Assembly (NCBI GenBank): GCA_051439505.1
Contig: JBFRWI010000145.1
Span: 1 to 64,000 of the forward strand
DNA: 64,000 nt
Direction of reading: 5' to 3'
Source: Hormoscilla sp.
Lineage (GTDB): Bacteria > Cyanobacteriota > Cyanobacteriia > Cyanobacteriales > Desertifilaceae
Positions 24,604-36,359 of the stretch are shown piece by piece. Numbering within the stretch: the stretch's first letter is position 1; every line of letters begins with the position of its first letter. The position numbers were made by a program, and so were the translations under genes. The notes below the pieces were generated by a model. That model searched no databases. It was given only the letters and a program-made list of their open reading frames with translations, and was not told where the DNA came from.

Positions 24604-26430
24604 TTATCTCTCAGGGGGGAGCGAAAGATCTATAATTGCCGATTTAACTCCGGGTATTTGCTGTAATGCTTGGACGATATTCTCGGCCTCAGTTCTGTTC
24701 GCTACAACTCCGGTTACCGTTACTTGTCCGTCTGCATAGTTAGTGGTAATGGCAATGCCATCTATCTGATTGAGCAGGAGCGTGATTCGATGCAGTTCCG
24801 CTGCTGTTTGCTTCGCATCTGGCGGTACTTCCACGGCCAAGAGCTGATTTTCTAACTCTCGGGTGGGTGCAGCTGCCCTGGCGATCGCTTCTGCTTGTCT
24901 GCGCAGATCCTCAGAAGGCACCCTTCCTTTTAGCTTCAGGTTGCTCCTATTCACTTCCACATCCAGACGATAAACTGATAAGGATGGCGCCGCTGCTAAG
25001 GCATCGGCAACTTGGGCCTCAAGACGGCGATCGACTCCATTGCGATATTGATGAATTCCCCAAGGGAGGGCAATTAATGCTGCTAGGGCCAATCCGATCG
25101 CCTTGAGTACAGGAGACTGTTGAGGCCCTACCTTTGACTCCTTACTTATAACTAACTCTTGAAGTTGCTGATGCAATTGCTGGGGTATTGTCTCTGCTTT
25201 CCCCTTAAATTCCTCTATGGATTGACCGTAATTCAGGAGGATTTCGGATAATGTTTGCCGCATTTTCTGAATAAATTGCTTGGATTCTTCTCCCTCAATT
25301 ACTACTGCTAGATAGCAGGAACCCGCTACTTCTAGGATTATTTTGTCATTGCCATAGTTGATCTCATCTATTTCCGAGTCTTTGCCTGACTGAGCGAAAT
25401 ATTCTCCGACAAAGCTGCGGATCGCTGTTAGCATTCCTGCCACTAGATCTGATTCTAGTCGCGGACCTTCTGGCTGTTGCACTTCGGATATTACTATACC
25501 AGACGCTTTGTGTATCAAGAAGATGGCCCGGGTACTAAATGAAATCTCCTCGGCCAGCATTAGTTCTGCTTCGGAGACTCCTTGCAGTTTGGCCCGGATC
25601 TTCCTTTCTATCCCTTTTAGGGTTAAGGCATTTTCGATCTTCCGATTGATGTCCCGAATTGTTTCGCCGATGTATTTGCCGATTGTATTCCCTATTATCG
25701 GATACAGGGCATCTATCATCGCCGTCCGCTCCAGTTTGATCTGCTTTTTCACCGCTGTTGCTATTTCTGGCGCGATCGCATTTGCCACTTCTTCTGGAGC
25801 CGCTTTCATCTGTTGGGTAATTGCTGGCGATATTACTGGCGCGATCGCTGCACTCATGGACTCTTTATCCTGTAGGATCTTATTCTGAATCATTTCATCG
25901 ATCAGGGGCGACAGGGCTTTCACCATTGCGTCGCGATCTAACCGATTTTGTTCTTGCACTGCGCTGGCTATTTCTGGCGCGATCGCCTGGGCTATTTCCA
26001 GCGGCGATTCTTTGATATATTCTGATATTGCTCTGCTAACTATCGGTACTATTGACGCTTCCATTTCCTCCTTGTTTTCCCTCGTTCTGCCCGACATCGC
26101 TTTCCCTATTGCTGGGGCGATCGCCTCACTCATTTCCTGTTTCATCTGCTGTAGATTTTCCTTTATCCTTGCTTCTACTAGCATAGCGATCTTCTTTTTG
26201 AGGCCCTTCATCTCCTCTGCTACCTGGTTTGACAGCATCTCCTGCCAAAGCGGCTCCATACTCCTTTTTATCTCTTCTCGATCGTTAATCTTCTGCTCGA
26301 TTCTGGCAAGGTTTTGTTGGATTTTTTCAATTTCTTCCTCCCAGGCAAATATTTCCTGCGGGACCAGAAGCTGTTGTAGCTGTTCGAGAGGAGTAACAAT
26401 ATCGTTTCTTTTCTGCTGAGAATTACGCAT
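24604..26430 (-). CDS. Membrane protein: coiled coil, AIAP repeats, longin/roadblock-like domain, TM, BON domains
   Basis: 608 aa; paralog of 26725-30189 lacking OmpA; TM IGLALAALIALPW, BON-like LKLKGRVPSE and VTVTGVV. Confidence 0.8.
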   Translation of the reverse strand: MRNSQQKRNDIVTPLEQLQQLLVPQEIFAWEEEIEKIQQNLARIEQKINDREEIKRSMEPLWQEMLSNQVAEEMKGLKKKIAMLVEARIKENLQQMKQEMSEAIAPAIGKAMSGRTRENKEEMEASIVPIVSRAISEYIKESPLEIAQAIAPEIASAVQEQNRLDRDAMVKALSPLIDEMIQNKILQDKESMSAAIAPVISPAITQQMKAAPEEVANAIAPEIATAVKKQIKLERTAMIDALYPIIGNTIGKYIGETIRDINRKIENALTLKGIERKIRAKLQGVSEAELMLAEEISFSTRAIFLIHKASGIVISEVQQPEGPRLESDLVAGMLTAIRSFVGEYFAQSGKDSEIDEINYGNDKIILEVAGSCYLAVVIEGEESKQFIQKMRQTLSEILLNYGQSIEEFKGKAETIPQQLHQQLQELVISKESKVGPQQSPVLKAIGLALAALIALPWGIHQYRNGVDRRLEAQVADALAAAPSLSVYRLDVEVNRSNLKLKGRVPSEDLRRQAEAIARAAAPTRELENQLLAVEVPPDAKQTAAELHRITLLLNQIDGIAITTNYADGQVTVTGVVANRTEAENIVQALQQIPGVKSAIIDLSLPPER

Positions 26431-26724
26431 ATCTGCTATTGCCTCGCCTATACGCTGCCCTTACATTTAAGTTTTTTTCAACTGCCTCAGCTTAATAGCC
26501 CCAGGGCCCCTCAGGGATGCTGACTGCTGACTGGGCCTCGCGATCTGCTGACATTGTTTTCACCTGAGCGATGATAACATATTATAGATGTTATCATCCA
26601 GAAAAGCTGATGCTACCCTGGAAGCTATGGTTACGGAGATCGGCCTGTTTGGGATACCGGTGGGGGCGATCGCCACGAACTGATGGTGCAATTAACCACA
26701 CATGATTAACCTTTCAGCAGATAA

Positions 26725-29700
26725 TTATTGACCGTTTTCACCGGAGACGATCGGATAAAAGACTACGGCCCTTCTCAACCAGAGTGGCCCATTCGTATCT
26801 ACATCTAAAGGGGCATGGGTTTTCCCAACTGCTTCGGTGCGTTTGGGATCGATGCCTTGAGTCTCTAGGATATTTTTCACGGCCAAGGCCCGCCGCTCTG
26901 CTAATTGTTGATTTTCTCCAGAATCCTTGATATTATCTATATAACCGACGATCCGTAAATGCATTTGGGGATATCGCATCATCAATTCCTTGATGGGGGC
27001 GATTTTTATATTTACATCCACGGGTCTGATCTTTGCAGAACCTTTGGTAAAGTAAAGCCTGGTGGTAATTGTCAGCGGTTTTACTTGAATGGTGTTGGCG
27101 ATCGACTTAACTCCGGGTATTTGCTCAAATGCCTGGGTAATTTTATGGGCATCATTTTTCTGAATTACAACTCCATTTACTATAACTTTACCTGCTTGAT
27201 ATTCAGCGCTAATGTCAATAGCATCCATCTGATTGAGAGTGGCGGCGACTCTACGCACTTCCTGTTCTACCTCTACTGGATCTGGAGGAATTTCCACAGC
27301 GATGATGTTATTTTCTAATTCTAAGTTGCCAGCAGCTTCCCGGGCGATTTTTTCAGCTTTTTTTTGCAAATACTCCGAAGGCACCCGTCCTGTTAGTTTC
27401 AGCTTGCCGCGATCCACCTCGACATCTAGACGATAAATTGATAAGGATGGCGCTGCTGCTAAGGCATCGCTAACTTGGGCCGCAAGGCGGCGATCGACTC
27501 GATGGCGATGCCAATGCATTCCCCAGGGCACAGTAATTAATCCTGCTATGACTAAACTGAGGGTCAGGACTGTCCAAGGATATTTTTTACGTTTTGTTAA
27601 GCCCGGGTCTGTTGACATTAACCCTTCTAGGAGTTTGTGTACTTGCTGAGGGATGCTATCGGGGTCTCCTTCATAGGTCTGAATGGGTTTACTGTAATTT
27701 TGCAGGATCTCGGAGAATGTTTTCCGCATTTTCTCATAGAAAAAACTAGATGGTTCTCCATCAATAACTACTGCTAGGTAGCAGTATCCTGCCATTTCCA
27801 AGATGATTTTGTTCTTGCCATAGTTAATCTCATCGATCTCCGATACCCGATCGGACTGGGGTAGATATTCGCTGACAAAACTGCGGATCGCTGTTAGCAT
27901 TCCCGCTACCATCTCTGCTTCTAGTCTCTCCTGGAGTCCCGGTTGAATATCTGAGATAATCAGACCTGATGTTTTTTCAATTAGGAAGATGGCGCGGATG
28001 GTAAAGGGCATTTTCTCAGATAGTAGCAGTTCCGCTGCGGAGACTCCCTTAAGTCTGGCTCTAAACTGGCGCCAAATTGTCTTTGGCGTTAAGGCATTTT
28101 CGATATTTTCGTTGATTTCACGAATCGTTTCGGCGATGTATTTGCTAATGGTACTGCCTATTACTGGATAGAGGGCGTCGGCCATTGCTGGGTACTCTAG
28201 TCTGATCTGCTCTTTGATCGCTGCTGCAATTTCTGGCGCGATCGCCATCGCCACTTCTTCGGGTACTTCTTTAATTCTTTGGGAAATTGCTGGTGATATT
28301 ACTGGGGATATCGCTGCACTCATGGACAGTTTATCCTCTTGCGTCCTGCTCTCAATCATTCTATCTATCACCGGCGACAGCGCTTTCACGATCTCTTCTC
28401 GATCGACCCGATTTTTTTCTCCCACAACCTTAAATATCTCCGGGGCGATCGCCTGCACTACTTCTCTCGGATCTGCTTTGATATAGTCGGCAATTCCATC
28501 TCTTAAAACTGGCGATAGGGCCACATCCATTGATTGTTTATCTGATTGGATGCTCTGCCGGATTGTTTCTGCTATCATGGGAGAAAGTGCTGTTATCATC
28601 CCTGCGGAATCTATCTCGTTTTGCTGTTCGACGGCCCAGGCCAGTTTTGGGGCGATCGCCTCTGCTAGTTGTTCTGGAGAGTTGTTGATATATTCGGTAA
28701 TTGCCCCAGCAAGCAATTCCTTCACTGACCCATCTACCGCTCGCTCTATATCGGCAATTTTGCTATCTATGACTGACTCGACGCTGGGGGTAATGGCATT
28801 CACCATCGCTTCTTTGTCCAAGCGGGTTTGTGCCGCGATCGCCTGGGCCAGTTCCGGGGCGATCGCGCTGGCGAGTTCTGCGGGCGAGTTGCTGATATAT
28901 TCGGAAATGGCGGGATTGAATAATTCTGCGATCTCCCGCTCGATCTCCTGCTTGAGTTCGGGAGTTTTATATTTGATAATTAACTCGATGCTGGGCAGTA
29001 ATACTCTGACCATCTCTTTCTTATTCAGGCGCGTTTGCTCTTTAATTGCGCTTGCTAGTTCCGGGGCGATCGCCTGGGCCAGTTCCCCAGGAGAATTGCT
29101 GATATATTGGGAAATTGCTGCTTTCAGCACCGGGGATAGTGCTGCATCCATTGACTGCTTGTCTTCCGAGATGCTTTGAGCGATCGCTTCTGCTATCATG
29201 GGAGCAATAGCTGTTACCATCGCCTCCGAGTCTAGTTGATGCTGCTGAGTAATTGTCTGGGCCAGATGAGGGGCGATCGCGCCAGCGATCTCTGCGGGGG
29301 AGTTGCTGATATATTGGGAAATTGCTTCTTTGAGCACCGGGGATAGTGCTGCATCCATTGACTGCTGGTCTTCCGAGATGCTTTGAGCGATCGCTCCTGC
29401 GATCGTGGGAGCAATAGCTGTTACCATTGCCTCCGAGTCCAGTTGATGCTGCTGAGTAATGGTCTGGGCCAGATGAGGGGCGATCGCGCCAGCGATCTCT
29501 GTCGGTGAGTTGCTGATATATTTAGCAATTTCCTGCTTGAGAAAGTCTGACAGCGACCGATCGATTAACGCTTTCGCTTGGCTTATTTTCTCATCTATGA
29601 CGGTCTCGATAATTGGGGCCAGGGCCTTCACTATTCCTTCCCAGTCGAGGCGCGTTTGCTCCGAGATCGCTTTGGCAATTTCTGGAGCGATCGCCAGGGC

Positions 29701-30189
29701 AATTTCTGACGGGGCTTCCCTGATATTAATTTTAATTGCTTCTCCTAATAAAGGCGCGATCGCTGCACTCATAGCCTCCTTATCATTCTCGGTCTTTTTC
29801 TCAATGACCCGATCGATGACGAAAGCAAACACCTGAATGATTTCTTCTGAAGCTAGCTGACGAGTAATAGTGTGCAGGATCAGAGGCACCAAGCTCTTTC
29901 TTATCTCAATTGGATCGGGAATTCTCTGTTCGATCTCTCCTACTCTCTGTTCCAACTGATCGATTTGCGATTTTGGTTCCGAAAGTTCATTCGGTAGCAG
30001 TAACTGTCGCAACTGATTTAGTGCATCATCCTCTTGCTGCGCTTTTGCCCCATCTAGCTGGCTATCTTTTCTCCACGCCCTGCTCTCCTGGACAGAATGA
30101 ACCATACTGCCGATCGACCAATTTCCTAGCTCTGGCATCTGGCTGGATTTGCCCGGATCTGATTCTTGGTTATAATTATGTCTGGACAT
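26725..30189 (-). CDS. Membrane protein: about 8x69-aa helical repeats, longin/roadblock-like domain, TM, BON, OmpA-like C-terminus
   Basis: 1154 aa; C-terminal LYFTKGSAKI...LRIVGYID...NQQLAERRALAVK.IL...GI is OmpA-like. Confidence 0.82.
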   Translation of the reverse strand: MSRHNYNQESDPGKSSQMPELGNWSIGSMVHSVQESRAWRKDSQLDGAKAQQEDDALNQLRQLLLPNELSEPKSQIDQLEQRVGEIEQRIPDPIEIRKSLVPLILHTITRQLASEEIIQVFAFVIDRVIEKKTENDKEAMSAAIAPLLGEAIKINIREAPSEIALAIAPEIAKAISEQTRLDWEGIVKALAPIIETVIDEKISQAKALIDRSLSDFLKQEIAKYISNSPTEIAGAIAPHLAQTITQQHQLDSEAMVTAIAPTIAGAIAQSISEDQQSMDAALSPVLKEAISQYISNSPAEIAGAIAPHLAQTITQQHQLDSEAMVTAIAPMIAEAIAQSISEDKQSMDAALSPVLKAAISQYISNSPGELAQAIAPELASAIKEQTRLNKKEMVRVLLPSIELIIKYKTPELKQEIEREIAELFNPAISEYISNSPAELASAIAPELAQAIAAQTRLDKEAMVNAITPSVESVIDSKIADIERAVDGSVKELLAGAITEYINNSPEQLAEAIAPKLAWAVEQQNEIDSAGMITALSPMIAETIRQSIQSDKQSMDVALSPVLRDGIADYIKADPREVVQAIAPEIFKVVGEKNRVDREEIVKALSPVIDRMIESRTQEDKLSMSAAISPVISPAISQRIKEVPEEVAMAIAPEIAAAIKEQIRLEYPAMADALYPVIGSTISKYIAETIREINENIENALTPKTIWRQFRARLKGVSAAELLLSEKMPFTIRAIFLIEKTSGLIISDIQPGLQERLEAEMVAGMLTAIRSFVSEYLPQSDRVSEIDEINYGKNKIILEMAGYCYLAVVIDGEPSSFFYEKMRKTFSEILQNYSKPIQTYEGDPDSIPQQVHKLLEGLMSTDPGLTKRKKYPWTVLTLSLVIAGLITVPWGMHWHRHRVDRRLAAQVSDALAAAPSLSIYRLDVEVDRGKLKLTGRVPSEYLQKKAEKIAREAAGNLELENNIIAVEIPPDPVEVEQEVRRVAATLNQMDAIDISAEYQAGKVIVNGVVIQKNDAHKITQAFEQIPGVKSIANTIQVKPLTITTRLYFTKGSAKIRPVDVNIKIAPIKELMMRYPQMHLRIVGYIDNIKDSGENQQLAERRALAVKNILETQGIDPKRTEAVGKTHAPLDVDTNGPLWLRRAVVFYPIVSGENGQ

Positions 30190-31138: not shown

Positions 31139-31333
31139 TCAATAACAGGATAGCGATTCGGCGATTCCTTTTTTGATTTCATCTCGTCGCCGTCTTGCCT
31201 CCGTCAGCCAAACCTTTTGAGTATTTTCATTTACATCCACCTCAATACTGGCTAATAGTTTATCTACTAGCTGTATTCTCAGATTCTTAGGCAAAGATAA
31301 GGCTTCCTGAGTAATTTTATCGACTGTTATCAT
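31139..31333 (-). CDS. Addiction-module antitoxin component, orphan and possibly truncated
   Basis: MITVDKITQEALSLP..RIQLVDKLLASI......W..EARRR.DEI pattern; no adjacent toxin. Confidence 0.65.
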   Translation of the reverse strand: MITVDKITQEALSLPKNLRIQLVDKLLASIEVDVNENTQKVWLTEARRRRDEIKKGIAESLSCY

Positions 31334-31427
31334 AGGACGTAGGACAGGCGTCTGGCCTGTCCGAATAGTTCGAGATCGAGAAGTCACCAAACCCAGTTTT
31401 TCCCCAAAACCGGGTTTGGTGACTATT

Positions 31428-32276
31428 TTAGTAGATCACCGCGCCTGGTCCTTCAGAGATGCCAGTATCCGGTATTTCCGTGTCTCCGGCCCACTCCGAA
31501 CCATCAAATATATTGCACCACAGCCACCCACTATCCTCTCGGCCTTGATGGAATACGTGTATTTGGTCGTTGTATACTACTGCTGATGGACCAGCCGTGA
31601 TTCCCGTGTCGGGCACCTTTTTGTCTCCCGCCCACTCCGAACCATCAAACACGTTGCACCACAGCCACCCATTATCGCCTCGGCCTTCGTGGAACACGTA
31701 TATTTGGTCGTTGTATACCACTGCTGCGGGATCGTCCGTCAGACCCGTGCGCTTTACCTCCGTGTCTCCAGCCCATTCTTCACCATCAAACACGTTGTAC
31801 CACAGCCAGCCGCTATCTCCTCGCCCCTGATGGAACACGTATATTTTGTCGTTGTATACCACTGCTGATGGACTAGAGGTTATCCCTGTTTTGGGTACCT
31901 TTTGGTCTCCTGCCCATTCTTCACCATCAAACACGTTGTACCACAGCCAGCCACTATCTCCTCGACCCTGGTGGAACACGTAGATTTTGTCGTTGTATAC
32001 CACTGCTGATGGTCCAGCGGTCATACCTGTTTTGGGTACCTCTTGGTCTCCTGCCCACTCGGAACCATCATACACATTGTACCAGAGCCAGCCACTATCT
32101 CCTCGGCCCTGGTGGAATACATATAATTGGTCGTTGTATACCACTGCTGATGGATCTCCGGTCATCCCCGTGTTGGGTACCTTTTGGTCTCCGGTCCACT
32201 CGGAACCATCAAAGGCATTGCCCCACAGCCATCCGCTATCTCCTCGACTCTGATGGAATACAAATATGTTGCTCAT
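31428..32276 (-). CDS. Six-bladed beta-propeller repeat protein (lectin-like), copy 2
   Basis: 282 aa = 6 x 47-aa repeat PSAVVYNDKIYVFHQGRGDSGWLWYNVFDGSEWAGD. Confidence 0.85.
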   Translation of the reverse strand: MSNIFVFHQSRGDSGWLWGNAFDGSEWTGDQKVPNTGMTGDPSAVVYNDQLYVFHQGRGDSGWLWYNVYDGSEWAGDQEVPKTGMTAGPSAVVYNDKIYVFHQGRGDSGWLWYNVFDGEEWAGDQKVPKTGITSSPSAVVYNDKIYVFHQGRGDSGWLWYNVFDGEEWAGDTEVKRTGLTDDPAAVVYNDQIYVFHEGRGDNGWLWCNVFDGSEWAGDKKVPDTGITAGPSAVVYNDQIHVFHQGREDSGWLWCNIFDGSEWAGDTEIPDTGISEGPGAVIY

Positions 32277-32520: not shown

Positions 32521-33369
32521 TTAGTATACGACCGCCCCTGGTCCTTCAGAGATGCCCGTGTTTGGTATTTCCGTGTCCCCGGCCCACTCCGAACCATCAA
32601 ATATATTGCACCACAGCCAGCCACTATCATCTCGGCCTTGGTGGAACACGTGTATTTGGTCGTTGTATACCACTGCTGATGGTCCTGCTGTTATCCCCGT
32701 GTCCGGAACCTTTTGGTCTCCCGCCCACTCCGAACCATCAAACACGTTGCACCACAGCCACCCATGATCGCCTCGGCCCTCGTGGAACACGTATATTTGG
32801 TCGTTGTATACCACTGCTGCGGGATCGTCTGTCAGACCCGTGGCCTTTACCTCCGTGTCTCCGGCCCATTCTTCACCATCAAACACGTTGCACCACAGCC
32901 AGCCGCTATCTCCTCGCCCCTGATGGAACACGTATATTTTGTCGTTATATACCACTGCTGATGGACTAGAGGTAATTCCCGTATCGGGGACCTTTTGGTC
33001 TCCCGCCCATTCCGAACCATCAAACACATTGTACCACAGCCAGCCACTATCTCCTCGCCCCTGATGGAACACATAAAGAAGGCCGTTGTATACCACTGCT
33101 GATGGTCCAGCGGTGAGTCCCGTGTTGGGTACCTCTTGGTCCCCGGCCCACTCCGAACCATTATACACGTTGCACCAGAGCCACCCGCTATCTCCTCGGC
33201 CCTGGTGGAACACGTATATGTTGTCGTTGTATACTACTGCTGATGGATCTCCGGTCATCCCCGTGTTGGGTACCTCTTGGTCTCCAGTCCACTCGGAACC
33301 ATCAAAGGCATTGCCCCACAGCCATCCGCTATCTCCGCGACCCTGATGAAACACGACTATGTTGCTCAT
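32521..33369 (-). CDS. Six-bladed beta-propeller repeat protein (lectin-like), copy 1
   Basis: 282 aa, near-identical tandem paralog of 31428-32276. Confidence 0.85.
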   Translation of the reverse strand: MSNIVVFHQGRGDSGWLWGNAFDGSEWTGDQEVPNTGMTGDPSAVVYNDNIYVFHQGRGDSGWLWCNVYNGSEWAGDQEVPNTGLTAGPSAVVYNGLLYVFHQGRGDSGWLWYNVFDGSEWAGDQKVPDTGITSSPSAVVYNDKIYVFHQGRGDSGWLWCNVFDGEEWAGDTEVKATGLTDDPAAVVYNDQIYVFHEGRGDHGWLWCNVFDGSEWAGDQKVPDTGITAGPSAVVYNDQIHVFHQGRDDSGWLWCNIFDGSEWAGDTEIPNTGISEGPGAVVY

Positions 33370-33965
33370 TATTTATTAATTACCTCCACCTATTGGCTGA
33401 TATGAAACTCATTCTCGATCGGAGTAACTGTTTTACATCACCATTACACAGATCGCTCCTGCCGTCTAACTCCAGTCATCATGAAATTATTTTTCACCTG
33501 TTCTCTAACACACCGTTAGGGCAGCTTTTGTCGCCAACCCCTTGCCGCCTGCAACTGTTAATTCTGCTGCTGGGGGTTACTGGGGATCGCGACTCCTACC
33601 ATTATTGTGAACCATGATTTTCTTCATGTCAATAGGTGAAACTACTCATTCTACCTTCTATCTGGACAGCTACCCCGAACGTAATTCCCGGAGATCCCCT
33701 TACAGTCTGTTATTCTGTGAAATTTAATTTTACTGGGGCCCGATCGCCCGTCCGTCCGATGCCATTTCTATTAACTTGAGGGGATAATCCTCATGGGCAT
33801 AACTTAACATATATTCTGAATATTATATCCGAGGAAATTATTTCTGTCAAGGGCAGGTTATACTTTTTTTCAGGACTTAACTTGACTCTGCCCCGGGGTC
33901 TCCTCAAACAGCATCCCCAAAGGCCAGTGAGAGCAAAATGGCCACTTGACAAGATCTGCCGGTGA

Positions 33966-34296
33966 CGACCTAGCTCAATTTTGTCGGGTCCTCACTCAGT
34001 CCGGCCTCAGTACATTTACTCTGGCCACGGATTTGACTCCGGCCTGGGAGGGACTTTTTCCGGCCTGAGAGTGACTCAGATCGCCCTTGGCAATTGTGTT
34101 TCAAGTCAAAGCGAAACTTTTTGCCGCCAGAGAGAAACTGAGTTACTTCCGGGAATAACTCAGTTTCTCTTGAGAAGAACTGAGTCCCTCCCAAGAGGAA
34201 CTCAGTTTCTCCCGGGAGGAAACGGTTACTCCCGGGGAGAACTCAGTCCCTCGCGGGCAGAATTCAGTCCCTCTCGGGCAGGACTGAGTTATTCCA
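33966..34296. repeat. Degenerate array of about 16 quasi-palindromic 21-nt units
   Basis: ACT(C/G)AGT-like cores at 33973, 33994, 34053, 34074, 34116, 34137, 34158, 34179, 34200, 34221, 34241, 34262, 34283. Confidence 0.8.
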
Positions 34297-34463
34297 TGAT
34301 AAAATATCTCTATAGTTAAGGGGCGATCGCATTGGCAGCGACCTTTTCAGCCAACGCTGAAAAGGGAGAAAGCCCTTTGGAGGCGGCATTTTGTCCCGCC
34401 AGAGCAACTACCGGGCATCAGGGTCAGTATGTTTACCTTATCAATCGCGAAGAGGATATCTCC

Positions 34464-35126
34464 ATGGCCGACTATATTCCTTCCCCTGACAGTGATTTCA
34501 ACAACTGGCAAATAAATTTCGTTAACTACCAGCAAGCCAATAAAGCCGAACTTAACGTCAGCGACGAGGAGATTTCCACTCTCGTCGCCGCTCAATCTCG
34601 CTGGGAAACTTCCTACGAAGCTCATCTCAATGCCCAAGCAGCGGCCCAAAGCGCCCGTCAGCAAAAAGACTCGGACCGCCAAGCTTGGGAAAACGCCATC
34701 CGCAACCAAGTCCGCAAACTGCAAGCTAGCGACACCACCACTAACGGCCAGCGTGCTGCCCTCGGCATCACGATCCCGGAAAGCCACCGCACTCCCGCTA
34801 GCGTCCCCACGACGCGCCCGGTTGTGATTATCGCTGAAAGCAAACCCTTGAGTCACACGGTGCGTTTCTTTGACGAAACCACTCCTAACCGTCGGGCTAA
34901 ACCTGCTGGTGTCATGGGGGCGGAAGTTTGGGTGAAGATCGGGGACGCACCGCCGACGAATACGGATGAGTTGAAATTTATCGGCCTCGATACCCGCACT
35001 CCCTATGTATCGGAATTTGATAGCGAAGATGGGGGCAAAACTGCCTACTATCGGTTGCGCTGGGTCAACCCGAAAGGAAAGCCAGGGCCCTGGAGCGAAA
35101 TCGTGGGTGCCCCGATTATGCCATAG
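34464..35126 (+). CDS. Uncharacterised protein: N-terminal helical domain plus FnIII-like beta-sandwich
   Basis: 220 aa from ATG 34464 (GAGGA RBS); ends YYRLRWVNPKGKPGPWSE, an FnIII-like terminal strand motif. Confidence 0.8.
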   Translation: MADYIPSPDSDFNNWQINFVNYQQANKAELNVSDEEISTLVAAQSRWETSYEAHLNAQAAAQSARQQKDSDRQAWENAIRNQVRKLQASDTTTNGQRAALGITIPESHRTPASVPTTRPVVIIAESKPLSHTVRFFDETTPNRRAKPAGVMGAEVWVKIGDAPPTNTDELKFIGLDTRTPYVSEFDSEDGGKTAYYRLRWVNPKGKPGPWSEIVGAPIMP

Positions 35127-35261
35127 AAAGATATGTTTGTAGTAAGCACTTTAGTGCTTTAGGAGCGTAAGGACTAAAGTCCTTACTACGAACCGGCGCG
35201 ATCGCCTATAATCGGAGAAGAGTGGCCCATTTCGACCCCAGTCAGATCGATATCCAGCAGT

Positions 35262-35543
35262 TCTCTCTCTTCGCTGTCAGCCCGCCGGGGGTTCAAACCC
35301 TAAGGCTTTTAGCTAAAGTCGGTTAAAACTGATATCTTGCACCATTGTCAATTAGCCCGATAGCCCGCCGTGGGTTCAAACCCACGGCTAACAGATGAAG
35401 TGGGTTAAAACCCACTGGGAGCTTTATCGGGAGGGCATTTGGTCAACTTTTTACCCTCATTCCCGGGCTCCGCCTGGGAACGAGTTATTGAGGCTCCGCC
35501 TCTAGTTGAAAGTGGTGCAAGATATGAGTTAAAACCGACTAAT
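35262..35543. repeat. Dispersed palindromic repeat, interrupted here by a MITE
   Basis: CTTCGCTGTCAGCCCGCCGGGGGTTCAAACCC...AGCTAAAGTCGGTTAAAA|CCGACTAA; intact reverse-complement copy at about 53693-53769, partial copy at about 5886-5932. Confidence 0.8.
35329..35528. mobile_element. 200-bp MITE with CT(G/C)ATATCTTGCACCA termini and TTAAAA TSD
   Basis: Left CTGATATCTTGCACCA, right TGGTGCAAGATATGAG; TTAAAA at 35323-35328 and 35529-35534. Confidence 0.85.
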
Positions 35544-35670
35544 AATATAATGTTAAACTAATAGTAGCTAAGTAGCTAGACAGTGCGAAATTATTTAAAT
35601 AACTCTTGTCTGCTAAGGGTTTCAGCGATCTAAAGGCGAGAGGACAAAATTACTCACTTGAACTTGCGCT

Positions 35671-35860
35671 ATGATAACTGCGATCGCGATAGAAGGATTC
35701 AAAACTTTAGCAAAAGTTAGCTTAACTCTGGGAAACCTCAATTTCTTGAGCGGCACCAATGCTAGCGGTAAGTCTAACTTTTTTGATGGCCTGCGAGTCT
35801 TGCAGGGTATCGGTTATGGATTAACAATAGATGAAATATTCAATGGCAAACCCAAGAGAG
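35671..35860 (+). pseudogene. N-terminal fragment of an AAA_21/SMC-like ATPase
   Basis: MITAIAIEGFKTL...LNFLSGTNASGKSNFFDGL Walker A; recognisable similarity ends after about 62 aa. Confidence 0.75.
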
Positions 35861-36359
35861 TCCATAATATAATAGCAACAACCAAAGCACCTGCGATCGT
35901 CCATAGCCAACTCCAAGGGGACTTGCCAAAAACAGCCAACGCCCATAATATTGAAAGCAGAGATGTGCTCGTTACTGTCAATATTGCCAATAATTGCGAG
36001 GCTGTTATATAAAATACTATGAGCGTTGGCATACCCACAGCGGCTGCAAAAATTGCAATAAATGACAACAGGTATATAATCGATTTTAATCGCTCTTGTT
36101 CTTCTAGTTGATTTGTCTGAGGTACAACCTCCAATTTTTCTAATATCTGTAATAACTCTTCCTTTTCGGAAACGGATAAAATCTCTACTAGCGATGACCG
36201 TTGAGTCAGGATTTTATTTGTCAGTTCCCGAAATTTTATTTCTTCTTCCTGCGTGAATAGCGATGACTGTTGAGTCAGGATTTTATTTGTCAGTTCCCGA
36301 AATTTTATTTCTTCTTCCCGCGTTAAAATTGTATCAGTATTGTTTTGGGTTTCCATCAT
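35814..36359 (-). CDS. Hypothetical membrane protein with tandem EEEIKFRELTNKILTQ duplication
   Basis: ATG 36359 overlaps the upstream stop (ATGA); hydrophobic C-terminal half. Confidence 0.6.
   Translation of the reverse strand: MMETQNNTDTILTREEEIKFRELTNKILTQQSSLFTQEEEIKFRELTNKILTQRSSLVEILSVSEKEELLQILEKLEVVPQTNQLEEQERLKSIIYLLSFIAIFAAAVGMPTLIVFYITASQLLAILTVTSTSLLSILWALAVFGKSPWSWLWTIAGALVVAIILWTLLGLPLNISSIVNP

Follow-up and report, generated by a model that had tools for sequence, protein, structure and literature searches.

A tandem array of 21-nt palindromic units and the gene directly downstream of it, found in the genome of a Hormoscilla sp., represent a real and widespread two-part module that is apparently undescribed. 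The pair lies in a stretch of 64,000 nt (contig JBFRWI010000145.1), referred to here as the window, and the gene encodes a protein designated P0001. Homologues of P0001 carry such an array upstream in most loci, and paralogues within one chromosome carry arrays of distinct unit sequences (words). A literature search, mostly outside the subscription journals and exclusive of supplements, returned no description of the module, and the available part of a review of small repeats (PMC3184786) contains nothing resembling it.

The array and its gene in the window

The features of the locus, in window coordinates, are listed below.

33981..34319, + strand: 112-codon ORF spanning the array, taken to be a by-product and not a gene
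33983..34129, unstranded: decayed distal units in the same register, five of seven slots above background by consensus score, with lag peaks
34130..34296, unstranded: core array of eight pseudo-palindromic 21-nt units with the centre ACT[C/G]AGT, each matching the consensus at 13-18 of 21 positions
Within the unit starting at 34214: 1-nt deletion, the following unit starting at 34234
34297-34305, + strand: candidate promoter, extended -10-like TG-n-TAAAAT, directly after the last unit (by eye)
34311-34316, + strand: second -10-like element, TATAGT (by eye)
34317..34463, + strand: leader with a GCGATCGC octamer at 34323
34450-34456, + strand: Shine-Dalgarno-like AAGAGGA
34464..35126, + strand: P0001 gene, 220 aa, helical hairpin plus FnIII (structure prediction, fold search)

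TRF reports a period of 21 with 7.4 copies and 71% matches at 34136-34290. By autocorrelation, the identity at lag 21 is 0.62 for 34120-34300, falling to 0.35 for the distal part at 33940-34120, and the background lag identity of the window is 0.27 +/- 0.06; the array peaks at lags 21, 42, 62 and 63 only, the distal part peaks at lags 21, 42 and 63, and every lag in the two flanks is at or below 0.34. The eight consecutive core units were scored against the consensus given in an earlier note on this DNA, as were the seven distal slots, which score 11, 3, 10, 13, 14, 6 and 11 (background mean 5.4; P of a score of at least 10, 0.028). In total there are eight clear and about five decayed units; the period of 21 claimed in that note holds, but its count of about 16 units is a slight overestimate. 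The clear units are self-complementary at 10-14 of 20 pairable positions, and 167 nt separate the array end from the ATG, close to the 170 bp given previously. The reported 1-nt slip near 34241 is genuine but lies a few bases to the left, in the unit starting at 34214, and the spanning frame is open and changes its encoded heptad as claimed.

Two familiar classes of repeat were rejected, in agreement with the earlier note. The units run head-to-tail with no unique spacers, unlike those of a CRISPR array, and all Rfam families score below the gathering threshold against the array; a cyanobacterial heptamer STRR is rejected by a lag-7 identity of 0.16 and the absence of a 7-nt period.

For the candidate promoter, the -35 position would lie inside the last array unit. 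A sigma-70 scan does not call the site (34297..34316); a similar AT-rich stretch also follows three of the orphan arrays described below, and inspection by eye suggests a promoter between the array and its gene in many family loci. Sigma-70 matches occur in 23 of 74 spacers versus 16.4 in shuffled sequences, which is not significant. At this locus the interval from 34296 to 34464 contains, by a simple pattern scan, nothing resembling a terminator on the plus strand. In loci L001-L004, which come from congeners, an additional array, of 18-nt period, lies between the candidate promoter and the gene, approximately 130-420 nt upstream of the latter.

The neighbours of the gene in the window are beta-propellers and an AAA fragment. 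Two tandem genes on the minus strand (31428-32276 and 32521-33369) each encode 282 aa with six 47-aa repeats that hit Kelch weakly, and at 33822-33850 (minus strand) a promoter matching the sigma-70 consensus perfectly is aimed at them. A truncated AAA ATPase start (35671-36012) and a lone addiction-module antitoxin gene (31139-31390) flank the region. On the minus strand, 24604-30189 holds a pair of long paralogues with helical repeats; one of the two also has an internal repeat of 207 nt. Homology to congeners ends at 35130. Directly 3' of the gene, at 35134-35550, is a cluster of short palindromes that is repeated genome-wide and in other cyanobacteria.

The P0001 protein

Structure prediction (pLDDT 91.5, pTM 0.49) gives P0001 helices at residues 9-25, 34-88 and 94-99, followed by a seven-to-eight-stranded sandwich at the C-terminus (residues 112-220) that a fold search identifies as FnIII (Z 12.0, rmsd 2.3, 98 residues aligned), confirming the helical-FnIII architecture proposed from sequence. 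P0001 matches no family in Pfam, NCBIfam or PADLOC, and its best match among PDB sequences has an E-value of 0.065. A search of the ESM Atlas returned unnamed clusters, plus one cluster with fn3 in 32% of its members; the sole match to the N-terminal half is an unnamed one at 0.86. No nuclease or recombinase fold is present, nor is there an HTH, RHH or ParB fold. P0001 itself has no signal peptide or TM segment and is probably cytoplasmic, because TM-like stretches occur in only two of 140 relatives and a hydrophobic N-terminus in one.

For two copies of P0001 the prediction is an antiparallel homodimer whose length is roughly that of one repeat. The homodimer prediction score is 0.76, compared with 0.00 for the best control, and the mark applied is one that 20 of 30 solved homodimers attain, as does one of 23 single chains; contact agreement among runs is at least 91%, with pLDDT of at least 85. 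The predicted contacts (75/47, 68/54 and 61/61) correspond to an antiparallel coiled coil of helix 34-88 about a twofold axis. This helix would be approximately 81 A long and 21 bp of DNA approximately 71 A, as calculated by hand from textbook rises rather than measured on the model. The conserved basic residues are K68, R72, R80, R97, R118, R144, K146 and R199. Two features count against DNA binding: P0001 lacks a net basic charge, and the predicted dimer interface takes in K68, R72 and R80.

Distribution of the family and linkage to arrays

The P0001 family accounts for 498 matches among 678 candidates and for 6,947 clusters at 50% identity, and is unnamed. Longer forms of the protein number two among 8,000 candidates, which is weak evidence either way. 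The family is present in all four congeneric Hormoscilla genomes and in 10 of 251 genomes of a second sample; none of 400 other cyanobacterial genomes has it, and no match was found in sets of plasmid and phage records. Five viral contigs carry a member. These five homologues (L097-L101) group in a single clade, in which two have an array upstream, one of them adjoining a capsid gene. In locus L030 an apparent second family gene (1150-1800) lies 162 nt downstream of the first.

Linkage was assessed in 103 fetched loci, 92 of them full-length forward matches and 84 of these with at least 300 nt of upstream sequence; the set includes the locus of the window and a few near-duplicates, and an array was called at a lag-21 identity of at least 0.5. 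A 21-nt array is found upstream in 72 of the 84 loci and downstream in only two of 86, and in the control regions it occurs in two of 52 (far upstream) and none of 57 (far downstream). The expectation that homologues would have adjacent arrays detectable by autocorrelation is therefore borne out. The median array has 10 units and ends 138 nt before the start codon (73 arrays). Another 23 full-length loci were collected, 19 of them new, and all 19 have a 21-, 42- or 43-nt array, down to approximately 27% identity; very distant relatives, matched over the N-terminal half only, have one in four of 12 cases. Of the two-part module proposed in the earlier note, the coupling of array and gene is thus supported by its recurrence at homologous loci, while P0001 would, we infer, be the cognate binder of its array.

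Arrays as DNA, RNA or coding sequence

The best dyad exceeds the best mirror symmetry in 61 of 73 arrays. Conservation of array columns shows no codon phase (p 0.60, versus 0.011 for seven coding repeats used as a control), so the codon-position bias suggested earlier as the mark of a decayed coiled-coil gene is absent. Open frames span 53 and 58 of 77 arrays on the two strands, with no strand preference, and in the arrays of three congener loci every one of the six frames contains a stop. Mismatches of the G-T and A-C types are about equal (747/686 and 702/688 in 64 dereplicated arrays), with no G-U excess. Because codon phase, strand preference and G-U bias are all absent, a double-stranded DNA element fits the array sequences best; of the two options left open previously, a binding-site array or a hairpin RNA, the dyad, mismatch and frame tests lean to the former.

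It is unlikely, though worth retaining, that the array acts as a single-stranded (RNA) partner of the protein. In its favour, gene-specific repeats upstream of a gene are the type III toxin-antitoxin layout as given in the available part of PMC3401426. The array of the window folds well as RNA (-158.7 kcal/mol, z -8.1), and adjacent units pair to form a 20-bp stem that is 90% complementary. Palindromic repeats fold well whatever their role, so a strong fold is expected here in any case. Besides the missing G-U excess, local covariation is almost nil: pairing at the nearest dyad is 0.475/0.467, compared with 0.443-0.466 at distant dyads (64 arrays). Arrays occur in both orientations relative to the gene (related words do so in 32 of 179 pairs, with a tally of 14 versus 24 among 38), and a quick tree needs only two changes, which is compatible with a single inversion or one origin. 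The pattern scan of this locus revealed no terminator-like site between array and gene, and a coiled coil with an FnIII fold is not Kid/MazF-like. One RNA-labelled run contains a contig across the array and gene of a relative, a configuration that cannot show transcription.

The notion that the array is a live or decayed gene for a heptad-repeat peptide is scarcely credible, since the open 112-codon frame and a period divisible by three are set against the absence of codon phase and strand preference, the six-frame stops in three congener loci, and the toleration of a 1-nt slip.

One gene, one word

Array similarity correlates with protein identity across 77 loci (rho 0.65), which is not proof of recognition because co-inheritance alone would give it. 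More informative are the seven full-length paralogues in one congener chromosome, whose words comprise five different 21-nt sequences (one shared by two near-duplicates) and one of 43 nt. Pairs of paralogues at 59% and 65% identity have array similarities of 0.34 and 0.25, against a shuffled null of 0.31, although such pairs are few. The words of paralogues are thus distinct, and their binding may be orthogonal. Some are only weakly palindromic, and orthologues at 82-85% identity show fast turnover of both unit number and word. The 77-locus comparison yielded no convincing specificity-determining residue column. In a reciprocal word search the words of the seven congener paralogues had no matches in the host; two orthologue words also had none, which marks the test as too strict.

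Gene-array pairs and orphan arrays in the host genome

The host genome contains 100 lag-21 arrays. The largest families have 21, 19, 10, 7, 5, 5 and 3 members, P0001's array belonging to a family of five, and in each of six families, 60 arrays in all, one member adjoins a gene of the helical or helical-FnIII kind. This arrangement of several gene-array pairs per genome together with many gene-less copies had not been recognised in the earlier note. Six of the nine host genes of these types have an adjacent array; of the arrayless genes, one is intact and 256 nt from a contig end, another is intact, and one is frameshifted. Three host genes homologous to P0001 (96.5% over 194 columns) match Pfam fn3, and arrays accompany 14 of 17 loci of the congener relatives of this fn3-matching group.

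All-helical families without FnIII, also accompanied by 21- or 42-nt arrays, are represented at host C135:40253-40726 (L108) and C130:32008-32667 (L107). One type has its array upstream in six of eight loci and is related to P0001 with a profile probability of 86%, a value in which coiled-coil bias is possible. In the other type 19 of 23 loci have the array downstream and none of the 23 upstream; this type shows no detectable homology to P0001 (0.7%), and a fold search with its model gave no match at E<=0.001. A downstream array is ill suited to an operator role, which counts against a self-regulatory reading.

Gene-less orphan copies number four for the array family of P0001 and up to 20 for others. 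Their abundance mostly, but not always, tracks the gene among congeners, and the counts are not independent, the compared genomes being related and 93-97% complete. One array family has 121 pattern matches in the gene-bearing host; a search of four congeners found no copy of the gene, and one or two matches in each. Another has 58-137 matches in four congeners that possess the gene (broken in one of them), against none in a family member without it. As a counter-case, one congener has the word of a paralogue at four places, and that gene was not found there.

Array family 2 consists of a conserved leader, a variable 21/42-nt array and a conserved tail (C228:26309-26889 and nine more, L264-L273). 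A search of the host assembly, 93% complete, found no gene for its 10 copies, and four congeners lack the array. Two further observations concern fragments and related layouts. One congener chromosome carries about nine copies of a 30-codon piece of a family gene that includes a stop (L163-L165, G496), and the three copies inspected adjoin 21-nt array units and an unrelated conserved stretch. At C174:29218-30251 is a 240-residue open frame, putatively HU-like with a beta-sandwich tail, with an array of 22-nt period downstream.

Mobility and genomic context

Neighbouring genes vary freely between loci. A total of 92 neighbours were scanned from 155 picked ORFs, those dropped being mainly array-overlapping ORFs, duplicates and ORFs of arrayless loci; they include seven polysaccharide flippases, five restriction-modification genes, ParE and Fic, and no transposase, integrase or partition NTPase was found among them. 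In two pairs of loci homology extends only from the start of the array to the stop codon (93.5% over 1,122 nt and 86.8% over 930 nt), whereas two other pairs share more than the module. Inspection by eye revealed no terminal repeats or target duplications at module ends, and at the window locus neither terminal inverted repeats nor a target-site duplication was seen.

The host also contains a hairpin element of about 150 bp bounded by GGGTGTGGTC...GACCACACCC (for example C135:7130-7279), with 569 copies of the end motif and 111 pairs of ends 125-174 nt apart; no target duplication was found for it. An end of this element lies within 150 nt of 24 of 66 family arrays, compared with 19 of 244 heptamer arrays within 250 nt, and no such MITE-like end is near the array of the window. 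Because 24 of the 66 adjoin a MITE-like end, orphan arrays may be moved by MITE-type machinery. A RAYT was rejected as the mover of this element, its motif being near none of the four Y1_Tnp matches of the host.

Comparison with known systems

By analogy, the module would work most like the partition-site or operator arrays bound by the product of an adjacent gene, of which the F-plasmid sopC/SopB, parC/ParR and tubC/TubR pairs are examples. Likenesses are the helically phased, dyad-symmetric tandem sites beside the gene of a small protein that forms dimers (here by prediction), and the differing sequences of co-resident systems. The module differs in having no NTPase partner, in the absence from P0001 of an HTH, RHH or ParB fold, and in its chromosomal location; membership of a par locus was rejected, there being no ParA, ParM or TubZ NTPase gene among the 92 neighbours.

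The type III toxin-antitoxin systems toxIN, cptIN and tenpIN likewise have tandem gene-specific repeats upstream of one gene and spread horizontally, but their repeats, as given in the available part of PMC3401426, are 31-62 nt long in 1.9-5.6 copies, unlike the 21-nt palindromic units of the module, which number about 10 and occur in both orientations. The upstream tandem array of this class is present at the P0001 locus, and the simple pattern scan of this locus revealed no terminator between array and gene. A Kid/MazF-like toxin of the ToxN, CptN or TenpN kind was rejected, P0001 being a helical hairpin plus FnIII with no Pfam match.

REP/REPIN-RAYT systems, so far as the accessible portion of PMC3116915 describes them, are alike in placing a gene beside its own palindromic repeat family, with many intergenic gene-less copies and several gene-repeat groups per genome; the module differs in its head-to-tail arrays, rather than inverted doublets, and in having no Y1/HUH domain. 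Neither P0001 nor its relatives match Y1_Tnp and the four host matches lie elsewhere, so membership was rejected. Array family 2 resembles the BrickBuilt and MITEPgRS/464 elements of Porphyromonas gingivalis, dispersed intergenic elements built of a leader, tandem 23- or 41-nt repeats and a tail, but these have IS5-type terminal repeats and a period other than 21, and no cognate gene is described in the part of the source available (PMC4596501). The family DUF6261 (PF19775) was also rejected: it has no match to P0001, two among 118 relatives at E 0.013 (far below the cut-off), none among 140 at E<=0.01, and none in the host genome.

Proposed mechanism and alternatives

We give roughly even chances to a self-addressed DNA-protein module, in which dimers would coat their own array and the whole would constitute a self-regulating, portable cassette. 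P0001 would form a rod-shaped antiparallel dimer with twofold symmetry, as predicted, and each dimer would bind one dyad-symmetric 21-bp unit of double-stranded DNA. The two-turn period would place successive dimers on one face of the helix, giving a cooperative coat, and in the P0001 subfamily this coat would abut the promoter, limit expression of the gene and store the protein. With a word for each paralogue, several modules could reside side by side without cross-talk. The cassette, having no enzyme or partner gene, would travel as a passenger between hot-spot regions, and gene-less copies, presumably spread by MITE-type machinery of the host, might serve as extra docking sites.

A different use of the same contact, which we consider improbable but not negligible, would make the array a DNA antitoxin. 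The coiled-coil dimer would act as a two-turn ruler held inactive on its own chromosomal array, and the protein would be set free once that array was lost or degraded, whether through segregation or because a phage attacked the DNA of the host. Spreading gene-less arrays would then serve as immunity sites, and the pairs of paralogue and word would be orthogonal lock-and-key sets. If true, this would be an unrecognised one-gene class comprising thousands of families, with a new mode of sequence-specific DNA recognition.

A little less probable is an array with a cis-regulatory role, as a minisatellite that is recognised by some factor of the host or that works through DNA shape or copy number, beside a protein that does something else, for example at the surface or in a filament. 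FnIII is usually an adhesion or protein-binding fold, P0001 is not net basic, the array abuts a candidate promoter, and unit number and word turn over fast between orthologues at 82-85% identity. Yet a single factor would ill explain at least six words per genome, each beside its own paralogue, or a period of 21 conserved across phyla, and the near-absence of signal peptides and TM segments among the relatives speaks against a surface role.

We judge it slightly less probable again that the module is a selfish element like REP/RAYT, whose protein drives the copying or spread of the array, for instance by fork stalling or through host recombination. Gene-less copies are plentiful where the gene is present, two pairs of loci have only the interval from array to stop codon in common, and the spread is patchy (four of four congeners, none of 400 other cyanobacteria). 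Against this, a nuclease or recombinase fold is absent, module ends inspected by eye have no terminal repeat or target duplication, two other locus pairs share more than the module, and the excess of MITE-like ends beside family arrays over heptamer arrays offers another mover.

That the arrays are neutral minisatellites hitch-hiking beside the gene in MITE-rich intergenic islands is very improbable. The host is indeed rich in dispersed repeats, with its 100 lag-21 arrays and 569 copies of one element end, and the available part of PMC4596501 describes minisatellite-bearing MITEs in P. gingivalis; but side, period and dyad are fixed across phyla, no MITE-like element end is near the array of the window, and the upstream-to-downstream contrast in linkage (72 of 84 versus two of 86) largely refutes it.

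Under the self-addressed module, several consequences would follow if the protein reads its word. It would represent a new DNA-binding architecture, in which an antiparallel coiled coil combined with FnIII fits two turns of the helix. Since nearly all full-length copies inspected have a phased array with a word of their own, the family would also constitute a natural library of orthogonal protein-site pairs, of use in programmable binding. Finally, with 60 of the 100 lag-21 arrays of the host in six gene-linked families, the module would account for how a large class of dispersed minisatellites in bacteria arose.
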